A stretch of 64,000 bases of DNA from an uncultured Pseudomonadota bacterium (GTDB lineage Bacteria > Oederibacteriota > Muellerivitia > Muellerivitales > Muellerivitaceae), in assembly GCA_963770835.1 (NCBI GenBank), contig CAVYRH010000005.1, positions 327,794-391,793 on the forward strand, given 5' to 3'. Below the pieces are notes generated by a model that was given only the letters and a program-made list of their open reading frames with translations, made no database searches and was not told where the DNA came from. A program made the translations under genes and the position numbers. The stretch's first letter is position 1, and each line of letters starts with the position of its first letter. Shown here in pieces: positions 13,480 to 28,775 of this stretch.

Positions 13480-13562
13480 TCCTGAAGCCGCCGAATCGGC
13501 AGTTGACCCAAGGGCGTATTGCTATCCCCCATCCAGCCAATCACCAGATGGGGCATTACAAT

Positions 13563-13583
13563 TTGTAACCTCTGAAAAACTCC
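13563..13583. repeat. Left terminal inverted repeat of the IS
   Basis: ttgtaacctctgaaaaactcc is the reverse complement of 16658-16678. Confidence 0.7.
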
Positions 13584-13727
13584 CTGTTTTGGTTTGAAAC
13601 TCTTCTCACCAGGGTTTTCAACCCCGCTTGGAGATGTTTTTGTTTCTCCAAAGGTGTTGCACTTACTCCTAGAACTCCTTTTTCGACCCTTCTTGCGTCA
13701 TCTGCCTCTGAAAAAACTCCCCTTAGC

Positions 13728-14388
13728 TCAGGCCGCCGCCAACTTTACGGCTCTTTTCCCATTAAATGCGATGCCACAGATCAACACCCAAATCTTGTTT
13801 CGGGCCATCCCGTAGTACCTCATTCGTCCCATCGAACACCACCGCTTCAAGGTACTCATTGTCGCCTCGATCCCGCACCTCACACGGCCCCAAACCTTGT
13901 TTTGCTTTAATTGCCTCTGGGTCAGCTTCTGTCCCCGCCAAACACGATGTAACACTCGATTCCGAATCCCTCGTTCCTCCAAATATTCATCGTGTTGCGC
14001 CGACCGGTAAGCCTTGTCAGCAAATGCCTGTTCTACCCCGCGAGGAACCATGTCTTTGAAATGTTCGTGATCGTGTTCCTCAATATGACTTAGATCCATC
14101 TTTCGAATCAGGCCGCTTTTCTCGTCCTGACCCACATGAACCTTCATCCCATCCACGGCTTTTCCTTGCCGGGAGGTGTAATGAACATCTTCATCCACCG
14201 GCTTTCCCTCTTGATCCTTGGATTCCGGTTTACAGGCTCCTTCCACCAGGGTGGAGTCCACAATGGCCCCTTTCTTGACCAAAAGGCCCTTCCGGTCCAA
14301 ACCCTGTTGCACTGCCCCCCAAACCCGGTCTATCAAACCGGCTTCCCGAAGTCTTTCCCGAAACTTCACCAAAGTGGTGTCGTCGACG
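13728..14388 (-). pseudogene. IS5-family DDE transposase, C-terminal ~220 codons (downstream half of a gene split by the antisense group II intron)
   Basis: VDDTTLVKFRERLREAGLIDRVWGAVQQG..., DSTLVEGA..., AFADKAYRSAQHDE..., GIEATMSTLKRW are IS5/IS4-type DDE motifs. The ORF-track N-terminal extension to 15008 is read-through into intron sequence and is not real. Confidence 0.75.
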
Positions 14389-14901
14389 GTGCGTCCAGAA
14401 AAGGCAGGTGTGTTCAGCAAGAGATAGTCTTGCATGGGTAATAGCCAAAGCCCATTAGCTAGGATGGCAGGCAAGCGGGAAACCAAATGCCTGAAGCCCA
14501 TCAACAAAGCCATCGAAAGGATGGTGAGCGAGTCGTCGGGCCGTAACGAAAGTAAATGCACAGGTGGCCCCGAAAACACTTGCCTCGGAGGCTGAGTCCG
14601 CCGTCGTGGGACGAAAGCATCATGGGACAGCGCGGAGAAATGGCTGAAGCGCTGGAACACTCCGACGGGGTGATAGCAACGGCACGAAGACAAGGACACG
14701 CCAAGCAACTGGAGAAACCCTCCTTGCCCCAGGCAGAAATGCTTGGAGAAAGGTAGGCCGTATAACCGTGACGCGGGAAAACGGTCGAAGGTGAGAGGGT
14801 TTAGGATGGGTTCATGGTAGCGATGAAGCGGGGTAATGCCCGTGGAGCGAAGGAACCCTGCTGTTGTTAAGTCCCTCGACAAAACGGAAGGCAGTGACGG
14901 T

Positions 14902-16203
14902 ATGAAAAAGACGTCAATTAACCTGCAAGACCTGAGACGAGAGATATACGTCAAAGCGAAGGCTGAAAAGAACTGGAGTTTCTGGGGACTGTACACCCAT
15001 GTTTGCAAGATGGAAACGCTTCAACAGGCTTACCGAATGGCTAAGGTAAATAACGGAGCCCCTGGAATAGATGGGGTGACGTTTGATGCCATTGAGGAGG
15101 CCGGAGTGGAGTCGTTTCTGGAAAGCATCCGGGGTGAATTAGTTCAAGGCACGTATAAGCCCGTTCGAAACCGGAAGAAGGAAATACCCAAGGGAAATGG
15201 GAAGGTAAGAGTCCTTGGGATACCCAACATTCGGGATAGAGTAGTCCAGGGAGCACTGAAGTTTATTCTGGAACCGATTTTTGAGGCCGATTTTCAAGAA
15301 GGGTCCTATGGGTATCGACCCAAGCGGACCGCTCATGCGGCTGTGAACAGGGTAGCATCGGCAATCGTCTGTAGAAAAACCCGAGTCATTGATGTAGACC
15401 TCAAGGCATATTTCGACACGGTAAGGCACGACCTTCTGATGAAGAAAGTTGCCCGAAGGGTTGAGGATGAAACGGTGTTGAGATTGTTGAGGATGATCCT
15501 GAAGGCCAGCGGCAAAAGAGGAGTCCCGCAGGGAGGGGTTATTTCCCCTCTTCTGGCTAATCTCTACCTCAACGAGGTGGATAAGATGCTGGAAAAGGCA
15601 AAAGAAGTGACTCGGCAAGGGAAGAACAACTATATCGAATATGCGAGGTTCGCTGACGATATGGTGATCCTTGTTAATGGATATCCGCAATGGGAATGGT
15701 TGGCAAAGGCTGCCTACCGAAGGTTACTTGAAGAATTGACCAAGCTCGACTTGCAAATCAACACGGACAAGACGCGGATAGCAGACTTAACGAAAGGTGA
15801 AAGTTTCGGGTTTCTGGGGTTTGACTTTCGACAGGTGAAAACCCGTCGAGGGAAATGGGGGGTGAAGTTCACGCCGAAAATGAAGGCGCGAGCAACACTT
15901 CTGGGTAAGCTCAAGGAAACATTTGGAAGCTTCCAATCTCAGCCGGTGCAGAGGGTGATTGAGATTATCAATCCCAAACTGCGTGGGTGGGTGAATTACT
16001 TTCGGATAGGGAATTCTAGGCGCTGTTTTAACTACGTGGAAAGATGGGTCGAGAATAAAATCAGACGGCATATGATGCGTGCGAAGAAGCTCGACGGTTT
16101 TGGGCGGGATAGGTGGAGTAGGGAGTGGATATATAAGTATCTGGGGTTGTACAGAAGCTACCAAATACGATATTACCAAGAACCGAAAGCGCTACCCGTC
16201 TGA
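14902..16203 (+). CDS. Group II intron-encoded reverse transcriptase / maturase
   Basis: NNGAPGIDGVTFDAIEE (RT0/1), PKGNGKVRVLGIPNIRDRVVQGAL (RT2), RFADDMVILV (the YADD-type RT5 motif) and a C-terminal maturase X domain (RGWVNYFRIGNSRR). No HNH endonuclease domain. The ORF is open from 14836. Confidence 0.85.
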   Translation: MKKTSINLQDLRREIYVKAKAEKNWSFWGLYTHVCKMETLQQAYRMAKVNNGAPGIDGVTFDAIEEAGVESFLESIRGELVQGTYKPVRNRKKEIPKGNGKVRVLGIPNIRDRVVQGALKFILEPIFEADFQEGSYGYRPKRTAHAAVNRVASAIVCRKTRVIDVDLKAYFDTVRHDLLMKKVARRVEDETVLRLLRMILKASGKRGVPQGGVISPLLANLYLNEVDKMLEKAKEVTRQGKNNYIEYARFADDMVILVNGYPQWEWLAKAAYRRLLEELTKLDLQINTDKTRIADLTKGESFGFLGFDFRQVKTRRGKWGVKFTPKMKARATLLGKLKETFGSFQSQPVQRVIEIINPKLRGWVNYFRIGNSRRCFNYVERWVENKIRRHMMRAKKLDGFGRDRWSREWIYKYLGLYRSYQIRYYQEPKALPV

Positions 16204-16237
16204 TAGGTCACATAAACTTTGACAGGAAAGCAACAGG

Positions 16238-16271
16238 TGAGCGTAGTGCGGGAAATCCGCACGCTACGTTC
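16238..16271 (+). ncRNA. Group II intron domain V
   Basis: GAGCGTAGTGCGGGAAATCCGCACGCTACGTTC has the AGC triad, a 2-nt bulge, a GAAA tetraloop and a G-U pair in the consensus positions. Confidence 0.7.
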
Positions 16272-16329
16272 GAGGAGGCGGGGACTGGAAACGGAGCCAG
16301 AAGGCCACCGCACCAGTCCTCGACCCTAC

Positions 16330-16607
16330 TGGTACTCCCGGACCCCTTCACCCACGAACCGCTCAAAACTGCGCCGGTCGTGGATTTCTTGGACTACTTC
16401 CACATCCGACAGGCCGTACCAGGATTCCAGCAAAAGGCATTTAAACAAGATCAAAGGCGGGATGGGAGGTCTCCCCGTGTTGCCCCGGTACATTTCCATC
16501 AGCAATTTCTCGATCTTCGGAAAGTCCAGAACCTTATCCACTTCCTCTAGCATGGTCTTTTTGAGTCGCCGGTTCTTGTCCTCGTACATCCCGAAGCTGA
16601 TTTGCAT
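16330..16607 (-). pseudogene. IS5-family transposase N-terminal ~92 codons (upstream half of the split gene)
   Basis: MYRGNTGRPPIPPLILFKCLLLESWYGLSDVEVVQEIHDRRSFERFVG is the classic IS5-family N-terminal (DUF4096-like) region. The reading frame terminates at a TAG formed by the last intron nucleotides. Confidence 0.75.
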
Positions 16608-16657
16608 GGAATCCCTCCGTCTGGAATGCTGCTATTATATTTCAGCATTTAGACGAA

Positions 16658-16678
16658 GGAGTTTTTCAGAGGTTACAA
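16658..16678. repeat. Right terminal inverted repeat of the IS
   Basis: ggagtttttcagaggttacaa. It supplies the TAA stop codon of the adjacent GT9 gene on the minus strand. Confidence 0.7.
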
Positions 16679-17971
16679 TTTATTTAATCTTTCCAGGTGC
16701 AGCTTAACATCCGCGACGATTTTCCCGACGTCCAGCGCCTCATAACATCTCACCTTTTGACAGGTCTTTGCCATCTTGTTAACGCAAGTGATATTGCGGC
16801 AGGGGCTTTCGGAAACGTAGGTTTTGGACCACACGTCCTGGTTGGCGGGAGGGAAGAGTGGATTGGTCGAATCATACCCCGACATACGGGCTGGGGTTGC
16901 GCCAAAAACCGAGATGACAAAGGTTCGGTTCCTGAATTTCACATTTCCCGTTCTGGAGTATTTGCGAGCCGCCGCAATATGCAAGGGACCGGTATCACCG
17001 GAAATGAATACATCGGCGAAATCCACTAAGGCGGCGTAAGCATCGATTGGCAGGGTAGACGGGACGACGACAACCTTCTTTTTTTCATCCGCCGACAATG
17101 TTTCCAAAAGTTTTTTTTCGACGTCCTTATGGACGAAAGCGGTTCCGAAAAGAACTATCGAATCTGTTTCCAGTATTTGTTTTAGCATGGCAGCTTGGTG
17201 CTCAAAAGGCATTAGGGTATACCGGGAGGCCGTGTCCGGGTTCATGAACACCAGGGGTTTCCCCGTGGGAACGCCGGATTCGCTTAATAAGGTCTTAGCT
17301 TTTTCGTGAGCTTCGTCGGAAAGAGTGACCGGGACGCCCGGAAAAGGCTTGTCGGGAAGGAAAGAAATCGTTTCCCTTAGGAGCTTTTCCACGAATAAGT
17401 AGGATTGGAAAAGAAAGTGGTTGATACCTGTTTGGTCGATCTCGTTTCTTACCAATTGGGGGGCGACGGTCAAGAAATTTAATATCTTCTGTCCTTGCGG
17501 GAAAAGACGATCATCCTCAAAAAAAGGCGAGCAGTTAAAGCATAGGTCGTATTGATTCTCAACCACCAACTTTTGGATGCTTTCGATGTCGTTGGGATCC
17601 GGAAAAACGCCGCCCGTGAAAACCGGGTAGAGGTTTGAAATGGCGGGGTTTCCCTCAATAAGACAGGCCACCGATTTCTTGATGACGTAATCGATACGAG
17701 CCGCAGGGAAGAAATCCCGGAAGGCTTGGACCGCGCCTTGCATCATGACCGCATCTCCGATGTGGATGTCAGGAATGACGAGGATTTTTTTGAATTGGGG
17801 AACGCCGCGAAGGTTTCTGAGGTTTTTGTGCCGGATGTGCTGGACCAAGAGCTTGTTTCCCAGGATGGGCGGGATCGTGCTGTTAAAAAACCAGGCCCCC
17901 CCCCGGGGAAACCAGGTGGTCAAAAGGCTCGTCCAATGGAAAATGGTTTTTTGTAATTTGTTGTCGAGCAT
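16673..17971 (-). CDS. Glycosyltransferase family 9 (ADP-heptose:LPS heptosyltransferase-like)
   Basis: GTAFVHKD..., ADVFISGDTGPLHIAAA (the GT9 C-terminal nucleotide-sugar motif), and ~430 aa length. A Cys-rich C-terminal tail CRNITCVNKMAKTCQKVRC follows. The last codons and the stop lie in the TSD / IS end. Confidence 0.75.
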   Translation of the reverse strand: MLDNKLQKTIFHWTSLLTTWFPRGGAWFFNSTIPPILGNKLLVQHIRHKNLRNLRGVPQFKKILVIPDIHIGDAVMMQGAVQAFRDFFPAARIDYVIKKSVACLIEGNPAISNLYPVFTGGVFPDPNDIESIQKLVVENQYDLCFNCSPFFEDDRLFPQGQKILNFLTVAPQLVRNEIDQTGINHFLFQSYLFVEKLLRETISFLPDKPFPGVPVTLSDEAHEKAKTLLSESGVPTGKPLVFMNPDTASRYTLMPFEHQAAMLKQILETDSIVLFGTAFVHKDVEKKLLETLSADEKKKVVVVPSTLPIDAYAALVDFADVFISGDTGPLHIAAARKYSRTGNVKFRNRTFVISVFGATPARMSGYDSTNPLFPPANQDVWSKTYVSESPCRNITCVNKMAKTCQKVRCYEALDVGKIVADVKLHLERLNKL

Positions 17972-26782: not shown

Positions 26783-27490
26783 ATGACGAAGCTTATTGAA
26801 AACACGGTCCAACTTAAGGTTTCCGACGGTACCGAAATGCAAGCATTCGTGGCCAAGCCGGAGGGGCCTTCCAAATCCGGAGTCCTGGTGTTCCAGGAAG
26901 CTTTCGGCGTAAACGTGCATATCCAGGAAGTGACGCGGCGATTGGCCCGGGAAGGCTACTTAGCCGTAGCCCCCGAGCTTTTCCACCGCACCCTGCCGCC
27001 GGGCGGCACACTACCCTATCCAACTAACAACGATTGGTCCTACATCATGCCCCATTTCAACGCCATCACCCGGGAAGGTTCCCTGGCGGATTACCAAGCC
27101 GCCTTTGATTGGTTGAAGGGTGAACTGAAGTCCGACAAGATCGGTTGCGTCGGTTTTTGCTTGGGTGGATACTCCTCCTTCACCGCCAACAGCCGCCTTC
27201 CCCTGAGGGCCGCGGTTTCCTTTTACGGCAGCCGCATCATGCAAAGCTTCGACTTGGCGCCGGAGCAAAAGGCGCCCCTTCTCCTCATCTGGGGTGGTAA
27301 AGACCAAAGCTCCACGCCGGAAAAACTGACGGAACTCGCCACAGCCTTAGAGGGAAAGAACTATGTCCAGGCCGTCTTTTCCGAGGCCGGACACGCCTTT
27401 AATTGCGACGACCGGCCGGCTTATCATGCCGCTTCCGCCGCCACGGCCTGGGCCATGACTTTGGGGTTCTTCAAGCACCACTTGGCTTAA
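26783..27490 (+). CDS. Dienelactone hydrolase-family protein
   Basis: GVLVFQEAFGVNVHIQEVTRRLAREGYLAVAPELFHR, and the nucleophile elbow GCVGFCLGG. Confidence 0.7.
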   Translation: MTKLIENTVQLKVSDGTEMQAFVAKPEGPSKSGVLVFQEAFGVNVHIQEVTRRLAREGYLAVAPELFHRTLPPGGTLPYPTNNDWSYIMPHFNAITREGSLADYQAAFDWLKGELKSDKIGCVGFCLGGYSSFTANSRLPLRAAVSFYGSRIMQSFDLAPEQKAPLLLIWGGKDQSSTPEKLTELATALEGKNYVQAVFSEAGHAFNCDDRPAYHAASAATAWAMTLGFFKHHLA

Positions 27491-27495
27491 CAGGA

Positions 27496-27639
27496 TGTAA
27501 CCCTGAAAAAGGGTTTTGTAGGGGCGGCCCTCTGTGGCCGCCCGGCATAAAACCGTTGAAAACAAAGGCTGAGCGATCACGATGGATCGCCCCTACAACT
27601 GCTAGACCACAAATCGAATCAAGTTTTTCAGAGGTAACA
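27496..27639. mobile_element. MITE-like non-autonomous element with ends related to the IS5-family element at 13.5-16.7 kb
   Basis: Left end TGTAACCCTGAAAAAGGG, right end AGTTTTTCAGAGGTAACA. The right-end reverse complement matches 17 of 18 nt of the IS terminal repeat. It is flanked by GGA/GGA and carries a palindrome (ttgtaggggcg...cgcccctacaa plus ggcggcc-ctctgt-ggccgcc). It lies directly after the stop of the dienelactone hydrolase gene, between convergent genes. Confidence 0.6.
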
Positions 27640-27662
27640 GGATGCTAAAAAGTTCAAAAGAT

Positions 27663-28775
27663 TTACGGGTTTAAGAGGTTTAACTGGGCGGTGCCGTCCA
27701 GGGACATCTGGACCTGGATGCCGTCCCGGTCCACAAAAGCATCCAGGACCCGGAACGAATCCACTTGGGTCACGAGACGGCTGTATTCCCCCACCGGGCG
27801 GGTCAAGACGGCGTTCATCCGTTCCCTCAATTGGTTCAGTTTCCCGCCGATAGGGATGTGGGCCTTCTTACGAAGGGCATTGAGGATGTCGGACTTCAAG
27901 ATCCAACTGGCTACCTGCATGAGAAGGTCCCCGGTTTTCACGTCGAAATCCAAGTGCCTCAAGTAAAACATTTCCTCCGCCGCATTGTATTGCGGGACAC
28001 CCCGGAAATAAATCGTCATTTGGGAAGGGCGTCCCCCGAGGTTGATGAACGGGTAGTACTCGATCCGGGTCTCGGCGATCACCTGCCCGGCCGCGCCGTA
28101 GAGTCTTACCCCCTTCACCCGCAAGTGGTAACTACCCGTCCCCCGGATGGGATAATTCACCAGGCCGCTTTTAGGATCGGCAAGGATGCGGTTGGCTTCC
28201 GCGAAGCTGATGGAAGTATTTCCGACGGCGTGGAACCCGGTGGAGCCGGGTTTGTAGGGCCGCAAGGGTGGAAGTACTTTCTTGACCAAGGCGGGTTTTT
28301 CCCCGAACGTTAAAATGGGGTAAGCCGTCATTTCAAGGACCATGTTCCAAAACAGGGGATTATGTTTATCGGTTTGGGCTAGACCGCTGCTCAGGGCTTC
28401 GGGCCGGATCAACAGCCAAATATTCTTGTCAATGAAGATGGGTTCCTGCATGGCGTCCCAAAGCTTGGTGATGCTTTCCAGCCCTGAAACTTCCATCACT
28501 GGAGGGGTAAGCCAGTGAAAGTCCCCGGGCTTTTGAACAGCGCTTCCTATTTTGTGGATCTCATGATCCACCCATAGGGTCAAATCCTTGGGGATTGAGC
28601 TTATTTTCGGCAACTTCACCGGAAGGCGGATGATGGCGGGCGGAGGAGGGCTAAAGGTGCGGGCTGCCGAGTCTGAAGGGGAGATGTAAAGGGACGATGC
28701 GGTGGTGGCACAACCCGAGAGTGCCAGTTCCAAGGCTGACAAAAGGGCGAAAAGAGAAAATCGTTGCGATAGCAT
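27663..28775 (-). CDS. Hypothetical lipoprotein
   Basis: Lipobox LALSGCATT after the signal peptide MLSQRFSLFALLSALE. 370 aa with no family motif recognised. Confidence 0.5.
   Translation of the reverse strand: MLSQRFSLFALLSALELALSGCATTASSLYISPSDSAARTFSPPPPAIIRLPVKLPKISSIPKDLTLWVDHEIHKIGSAVQKPGDFHWLTPPVMEVSGLESITKLWDAMQEPIFIDKNIWLLIRPEALSSGLAQTDKHNPLFWNMVLEMTAYPILTFGEKPALVKKVLPPLRPYKPGSTGFHAVGNTSISFAEANRILADPKSGLVNYPIRGTGSYHLRVKGVRLYGAAGQVIAETRIEYYPFINLGGRPSQMTIYFRGVPQYNAAEEMFYLRHLDFDVKTGDLLMQVASWILKSDILNALRKKAHIPIGGKLNQLRERMNAVLTRPVGEYSRLVTQVDSFRVLDAFVDRDGIQVQMSLDGTAQLNLLNP

Follow-up and report, generated by a model that had tools for sequence, protein, structure and literature searches.

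The question that this locus raises is what a 144-bp sequence between two convergent genes is, and how it came to lie there. We analysed it within a stretch of DNA of 64 kb, referred to here as the window. Our data indicate that positions 27496-27639 are very probably a non-autonomous DNA transposon (MITE) whose terminal inverted repeats (TIRs) of 15-18 nt are shared with an IS5-family insertion sequence (IS) also present in the window. Judged from its sequence, the element is a MITE and not a chance palindrome, and it is well supported as an ordinary kind of bacterial mobile DNA. The flanking genes encode a dienelactone hydrolase (DLH) and a DUF4403 protein, and they converge, as the earlier note had described. 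The coordinates of all features are collected in Table 1.

We found that both ends of the MITE resemble the 20-nt terminal repeat of the IS (TGTAACCTCTGAAAAACTCC, at 13564-13583 on the plus strand and 16658-16677 on the minus strand), as the earlier note had claimed. The left end of the MITE reads TGTAACCCTGAAAAAGGG (27496-27513) and its TIR agrees with the IS repeat at 15 of 16 positions, with a 1-nt deletion that is unique among the copies seen, while the right TIR agrees at 17 of 18 positions, with one substitution. Set against each other, TGTAACC-CTGAAAAA and TGTTACCTCTGAAAAA constitute a pair of terminal inverted repeats. The match of the right end had been called unlikely by chance in 64 kb, and shuffles bear this out: allowing up to three mismatches, the IS 20-mer occurs three times in the window, at either end of the IS and at the right end of the MITE, and not once in 100 dinucleotide shuffles. 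Furthermore, an edit-distance search of the 64 kb (16-mer, up to three edits) returned four sites only, one for each end of the IS and of the MITE. The GGA/GGA that flanks the MITE and the ATT/ATT that flanks the IS can both be read in the sequence, and no ORF was found within the 144 bp, again as first described. It is the other members of the family, rather than the window copy alone, that fix the length of the target-site duplication (TSD) at 3 bp. A longer direct repeat of 10 bp, TAACAGGATG, overlaps each boundary of the MITE; it was rejected as a longer TSD since the family-wide TSD is 3 bp, and it is also countered by relatives without the MITE, in which TTAAC, with the DLH stop codon in it, is likewise present.

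Table 1. Coordinates of the MITE, its partner IS and neighbouring genes in the window, and of a motif associated with family A in other loci.
Feature	Position	Strand	Description
MITE, family B, subfamily B1	27496..27639		144 bp, without ORF; nhmmer and alignment with 11 homologues
Left TSD copy, GGA	27493..27495		read from sequence; length set by family-wide duplications
Right TSD copy, GGA	27640..27642		read from sequence; family-wide duplications
Left TIR	27496..27510	+	TGTAACC-CTGAAAAA
Right TIR	27622..27639	-	reverse complement TGTTACCTCTGAAAAACT
REP-like module 1	27518..27543	+	GTAG (27518-27521) and hairpin 1, GGGCGGCC-CTCTGT-GGCCGCCC (27522-27543); fold -19.4 kcal/mol, stem covariation
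A/T-rich spacer	27544..27570		family-conserved CGTTGAAAACAAAG motif, common to family A; alignment
REP-like module 2	27571..27596	-	GTAG (27596-27593) and hairpin 2, GGGCGATC-CATCGT-GATCGCTC (27592-27571); fold
DLH (dienelactone hydrolase)	26783..27490	+	PF01738
DUF4403 protein	27663..28775	-	PF14356
IS5-family IS	13564..16677	-	same terminal repeats as MITE; 3,114 bp, 1,173 bp minus intron; NF033581
IS TSD left, ATT	13561..13563		sequence
IS TSD right, ATT	16678..16680		sequence
Group II intron, GTGCG...CTAC	14389..16329	+	1,941 nt; antisense in transposase gene; RF02003
Intron RT/maturase ORF	14836..16203
Rfam RF02003 match	14415..14551
CTTGGCG/GTGAAA motif sites, first part	L008 31-90 and 769-821; L048 5748-5800; L020 1968-2010; L057 5737-5779 and 5824-5875
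CTTGGCG/GTGAAA motif sites, second part	L012 2821-2852; L059 4727-4767; L066 7554-7586; L015 5068-5119

The presumed autonomous partner of the MITE is an IS with matching ends and a 3-bp TSD, represented by the window IS and by relatives in two other loci. The transposase of the window IS lies on the minus strand and contains DUF772 (PF05598) and DDE_Tnp_1 (PF01609) domains, and its gene is interrupted by the group II intron. Removal of the intron in silico restored a 312-aa transposase ORF. Across the junction it reads GVREYHVDDTT, exactly as does P0121, a homologue of 312 aa at 95% identity that has no interruption. The restored protein scores 194.5 bits on the NCBIfam model NF033581 (IS5 family), above the cutoff of 140; with its TGT ends and 3-bp TSD, the partner is assigned at the family level only. 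Splicing cannot rescue the transposase mRNA, given the antisense orientation of the intron, and the window copy of the IS is probably inactive (most likely dead). An intact IS of 1,173 bp with the same ends is present in L105 (677-1849), and a more distant intact relative of 1,187 bp, with the same ends and an ACT/ACT TSD, in L106 (2436-3622). These intact copies were reached by way of homologues at the protein level; two further candidates, L028 and L068, were rejected because they are truncated or cut by the contig end. Adjoining the distant relative, positions 4513-5939 of L106 encode CD-NTase C-terminal and Cap15-type domains, as would be found in a CBASS-like defence locus.

Overall, the similarity between MITE and IS is confined to the ends. 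When the interior of the MITE was locally aligned to the IS, 258 of 300 shuffles scored at least as high as the real sequence. We therefore rejected the reading of the MITE as an internal-deletion derivative of the window IS. The earlier statement that the element derives from the IS family stands for the shared ends and fails for the interior, which is unrelated. Mobilisation by the IS transposase is what we infer from the shared ends and the common TSD length. By the route that is usual for MITEs, the DDE transposase from an intact IS copy would bind both ends of the MITE and move it in trans, and insertion at a staggered 3-bp cut would give rise to the GGA/GGA duplication. The window copy would have landed in a spacer of roughly 25 nt that separated the DLH gene from the convergent DUF4403 gene, and its interior would be a passenger, the ends alone being common to the IS. 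The window MITE is probably immobile now: its left end has lost a nucleotide that every other copy seen retains, and the intron has inactivated the one copy of the IS that the window contains.

A genome-wide search for the terminal repeat had been proposed as a check on this reading, and a scan across genomes did find other copies. Scanning one genome per species for TGTWACCTCTGAAAAACT, we obtained 68 loci, 27 of which lie in MAGs labelled candidate division FCPU426. The remaining loci are single and scattered over unrelated taxa, in about the number expected by chance for the length of the pattern. Most FCPU426 loci are short elements with paired, inverted ends 90-144 bp apart and 3-bp TSDs. 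The first of these families, family A, consists of 17 copies of 122 bp, of which MAG MFD04780.bin.2.20 contains 15. Comparison of TSDs among copies, likewise suggested beforehand, gave perfect 3-bp duplications for 16 of the 17 (tac, agt, att, gaa, aaa, gtt, aat, ggt, ttt, atc). Thirteen of the 17 copies have an identical score against the family profile (L008, L009, L012, L015, L019, L023, L026, L043, L048, L051, L059, L066, L070), and 12 of these 13 have a perfect 3-bp TSD (L043 matches at two of three bases; L019 and L070 share one site). By these sequence features, family A looks like the product of a recent transposition burst in MAG MFD04780.bin.2.20 and its relative MFD05580.bin.1.91.

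The window MITE belongs to a second family, family B, which is homologous to it throughout its length. Three copies of 142-144 bp are present in MAG palsa_1180 (L007, L016, L025), and a metagenome scan with the pattern CTGAAAAA-N(2-6)-TTTTGTAGGGGC added eight more (L081, L083, L086, L089, L094, L097, L100, L104; the longest is 147 bp). Family B therefore comprises 12 copies, the window MITE and 11 homologues, of 142-147 bp, which lie at unrelated loci and align over their full length. The window copy, L086, L089, L094 and L100 form subfamily B1, and the other seven form subfamily B2. The family-B profile matches the MITE at E=3.3e-34 (nhmmer, 64-kb window), and repeat search, motif searches and nhmmer found no second family-B copy in the window. 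Perfect 3-bp TSDs flank the window copy (gga), L007 (tgt), L016 (agg) and L104 (ggt); in the remaining copies one or two of three bases match or one end is lost, as expected of older insertions. Other interiors are enclosed by the same ends in types of 129-131 bp (L021, L027) and 90 bp (L024), so that at least four MITE families, family B included, carry these ends. The suggestion that the IS family has spawned non-autonomous derivatives in this lineage is thus borne out by several MITE families that share its ends, at least three in addition to family B. These data document an active system of an IS5-family IS and its MITEs in the uncultured candidate phylum FCPU426, a placement that we infer from where the relatives of the IS and of the MITE occur.

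The interior of the window MITE had been described as a GC-rich palindrome. The palindrome is present and the description is incomplete, since the interior holds two separate hairpins, each preceded by GTAG on its own strand and facing each other in inverted orientation (27522-27543 and 27571-27592). The core is thus a head-to-head heterodimer of inverted modules with a conserved spacer of 27 nt, following the definition in PMC3733652, and on the minus strand the A/T-rich spacer provides a T-tract after hairpin 2. All 24 modules in the 12 family-B copies fold with an 8-bp stem, and 22 of the 24 begin with GTAG. The stems are of four types with a common base, GGGCG/CGCCC, above which the inner three pairs change in a compensatory way (GCC/GGC, CGA/TCG, ATC/GAT, GGA/TCC). 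We scored covariation at six in-register stem pairs over 25 distinct modules, six of which come from unrelated contigs (L092, L093, L098). In this set 98.6% of cells pair, with one pair occurring as GC:9 CG:7 AU:6; the score was reached by 0 of 500 shuffles, and slid controls were 32-51% paired. This covariation, which extends across the subfamilies, suggests some constraint on the hairpins. The simplest candidate would be a role in forming or protecting RNA 3' ends, with protein recognition as the alternative. The covarying pair of GTAG hairpins carried as cargo is the sole feature of the MITE that goes beyond the routine. It links MITEs to REP-like elements, a link that has a few precedents, and it could help to separate retention for RNA 3'-end formation from protein recognition.

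The GTAG core raises the question whether a second transposition system is involved. One reading is that the MITE is a chimera open to two systems, with ends for an IS5-family DDE transposase and a GTAG dimer for a RAYT-type HUH transposase. We regard this as very unlikely; if it were true, IS5-driven MITEs would be vehicles that seed REP/REPIN-type hairpins in the candidate phylum, and the compensatory stem changes would reflect selection by a hairpin-recognising protein, beyond RNA folding alone. A REPIN-like core could also be the mobile unit itself, with the GTAG dimer moved by a RAYT (HUH/Y1) and the IS-like ends incidental, for instance a palindromic target or a small MITE that was already there when the dimer inserted. 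This second reading draws on the likeness of the core to a head-to-head GTAG REP heterodimer with a conserved spacer (PMC3733652) and on the GTAG-15 dimers of Anabaena, which are embedded in long palindromes (Di Nocera et al. 2013, PMC3733652). Furthermore, singlets and inverted dimers of GTAGGGGC plus hairpin occur without IS-type ends in L092 (about 50-95), L093 (3340-3398) and L098 (1086-1157 and 6928), so REP-like elements of the sequence type of the cargo occur free in metagenomic contigs elsewhere. However, in about 282 kb of FCPU426-lineage DNA there are no free GTAGGGGC-plus-hairpin modules, which are found there only inside family-B MITEs, and the TSDs flank the outer ends and not the GTAG modules. 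The same ends also move interiors that are unrelated, in families A and C and in the 90-bp type, and the inter-module spacer motif CGTTGAAAAYWAAAG is common to family A, which is free of hairpins, so the dimer did not arrive as a single unit with its own spacer. A tblastn search of the window and fetched loci gave no credible match to a RAYT-like ORF, a weak argument since the E. coli RayT query was approximate. On these grounds we did not file the core as a REP, and we consider it very unlikely that the core is what moves. Our preferred reading remains a MITE whose ends are recognised by the IS5-family transposase and whose hairpins are cargo.

Family B also bears on whether the locus holds only a one-off remnant, that is, a pair of solo IS ends that an inserted and then internally deleted IS left behind around local sequence. 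The single copy in the window and the deletion in its left end would fit such a remnant, but other MAGs and metagenomes contain, at unrelated loci, 11 full-length homologues whose interior is the same, and this interior does not resemble the IS, which makes this reading exceedingly improbable. A structured intergenic region evolved by the host, a terminator or sRNA gene that resembles IS ends by coincidence, would account for the stable fold and for one terminator-like site, but it has next to no probability in view of end similarity beyond chance, a dispersed family with TSDs, the lack of an Rfam match in the MITE and the absence of the MITE at the syntenic loci of relatives.

We found that the whole MITE folds more stably than its shuffles (z = -4.0 and -3.3), which is to be expected of any MITE with inverted ends. 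When the whole window was scanned against Rfam at gathering thresholds, the group II intron was the sole match. The element had also been proposed to act as a bidirectional terminator for the two flanking genes. A consensus terminator scan flagged one site in the MITE, formed by minus-strand hairpin 2 and the AGCCTTTGTT after it; this site is borderline terminator-like and has the orientation that suits the DUF4403 transcript; no plus-strand terminator for DLH was flagged in the MITE. Terminator-like sites in the region number 4, against a shuffle mean of 3.9. The proposal is therefore half supported at best, its minus-strand half being the one that finds a candidate. Hairpin 2 with the T-tract of the spacer looks like an intrinsic terminator that would serve the DUF4403 transcript, while hairpin 1 could at most protect the 3' end of the DLH mRNA. 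At the RNA level, the hairpins would probably serve the two converging transcripts as 3'-end structures, a functional reading that is weak.

The MITE starts 5 nt past the DLH stop codon, and the 172-nt spacer between the two stop codons consists of 144 nt of MITE and 28 nt of other sequence, which comes to 25 nt when one GGA is left out. In the closest relatives found (L075-L078, in which the DLH protein is 87% identical), the gene order PilZ, UvrD, DLH, convergent DUF4403, GatC, GatA is kept, the spacer is 27-29 nt and the MITE is absent. A comparison with empty sites in related genomes, as the earlier note envisaged, thus yielded syntenic loci without the MITE; at 87% protein identity, however, the spacers are too diverged for base-by-base alignment, and the comparison establishes the absence of the MITE but not the exact pre-insertion sequence. 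A precise empty-site junction at this locus would read TTAACAGGA joined directly to TGCTAAAAAG. All contigs that encode proteins identical to the window DLH or DUF4403 carry the adjoining part of the MITE, and no presence/absence polymorphism was seen among contigs with identical flanking proteins, so the MITE appears fixed in that population. For annotation, the MITE explains the structured 172-nt spacer between the convergent genes, and it may explain short-read assembly breaks at the locus.

Five Logan contigs from three sequencing runs (L001-L003, L004-L005) end in the hairpin-1 loop, at about 27528-27532 of the window. They approach the loop from either side and overlap by only 5 nt. This break may reflect sibling copies or strain variants, since other B1 copies differ at the next base (CTCCGT vs CTCTGT). 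When ORFs are called crudely from stop to stop, most family-B copies are close to the 3' end of a long ORF, at a distance of up to about 20 nt or with a slight overlap. The distances are 5 nt for the window copy, -5 for L086, 5 for L094, 2 for L016, 4 for L097, 18 for L104, -11 for L089 and -4 for L100, and in some copies the stop codon of the neighbouring ORF, by the same crude calls, lies inside the end of the MITE. The neighbouring genes occur in either orientation, according to crude ORF calls that mis-called the right-hand neighbour of the window copy itself and are too noisy to give a firm statistic on orientation.

Among known systems, MITEAba12 and ISAba12 of Acinetobacter, as described in the parts of PMC6382973 drawn on here, provide the closest parallel in the relation of a MITE to its IS. 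MITEAba12 is likewise short and without an ORF (113 bp, compared to 144 bp here), its identity to a co-resident IS with a DDE transposase is limited to TIRs of roughly 16 bp, and it has the TSD length of its partner and AT-rich targets; there, too, mobilisation in trans is deduced from ends and TSD (PMC6382973). It differs in its end sequences and in a TSD of 9 bp rather than 3 bp, and its transposition was caught in the laboratory whereas the window MITE is known from sequence alone; the same parts of PMC6382973 report no GTAG hairpin core for MITEAba12. A precedent for a REP inside a MITE-like unit is QMITE2 of Coxiella burnetii, which carries a GTAG REP and, in the portion of PMC5896051 used here, is found mainly in 3' UTRs and intergenic regions. 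QMITE2 has direct repeats of 7-11 nt compared to 3 here, and its REP is a target of IS1111, an insertion of which was not seen in the window MITE; that portion of PMC5896051 describes no end-matched partner IS, whereas the window MITE has one and carries two head-to-head GTAG modules.

The core of the window MITE shares with GTAG REP dimers and REPINs (Di Nocera et al. 2013; Bertels and Rainey 2011, as cited there) the GTAG at the outer end of each module, a GC-rich 8-bp stem with a loop of 4-6 nt, inverted modules 27 nt apart with a conserved spacer, stems that form a heterodimer, and a location downstream of convergent ORFs (PMC3733652). Unlike in these systems, the dimer of the window type is always enclosed by IS5-type TIRs and 3-bp TSDs, its copy number appears low, with no module free of a MITE in the lineage DNA covered above, and no RAYT was found in the window or fetched loci with the approximate query. 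The Correia or NEMIS elements of Neisseria are MITEs of 100-155 bp with terminal repeats and a TA TSD, which adjoin genes and are co-transcribed with them, and whose hairpins affect mRNA processing and stability. To our knowledge, Correia elements have no autonomous partner. They resemble the window MITE as small, gene-adjoining MITEs with terminal repeats and hairpins, and differ from it in the sequence of their ends, in the TA TSD and in the lack of a partner, whereas the window MITE has a matching IS. NEMIS are cited in PMC3733652.

A literature string search for GTAGGGGCG returned unrelated primer matches only. At several loci the terminal repeat stands at the head of repeated sequences in MAGs labelled as other phyla. 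In a 'Deltaproteobacteria' MAG it heads one sequence common to L047 (3282) and L055 (3442), and in an 'Alphaproteobacteria' MAG (L046, 4124) it occurs with the family-C type known from FCPU426. Such occurrences could be due to horizontal spread of the IS family or to mis-binned contigs. The interior of family A carries CTGGCGAACTTGGCGTCTTGGCGGTGAAA, a motif of about three CTTGGCG units followed by GTGAAA, which is absent from the window. This motif is also free-standing and intergenic in the FCPU426 MAG that holds family A (Table 1), and in L100, a family-B copy without its right end, it stands in place of that end.
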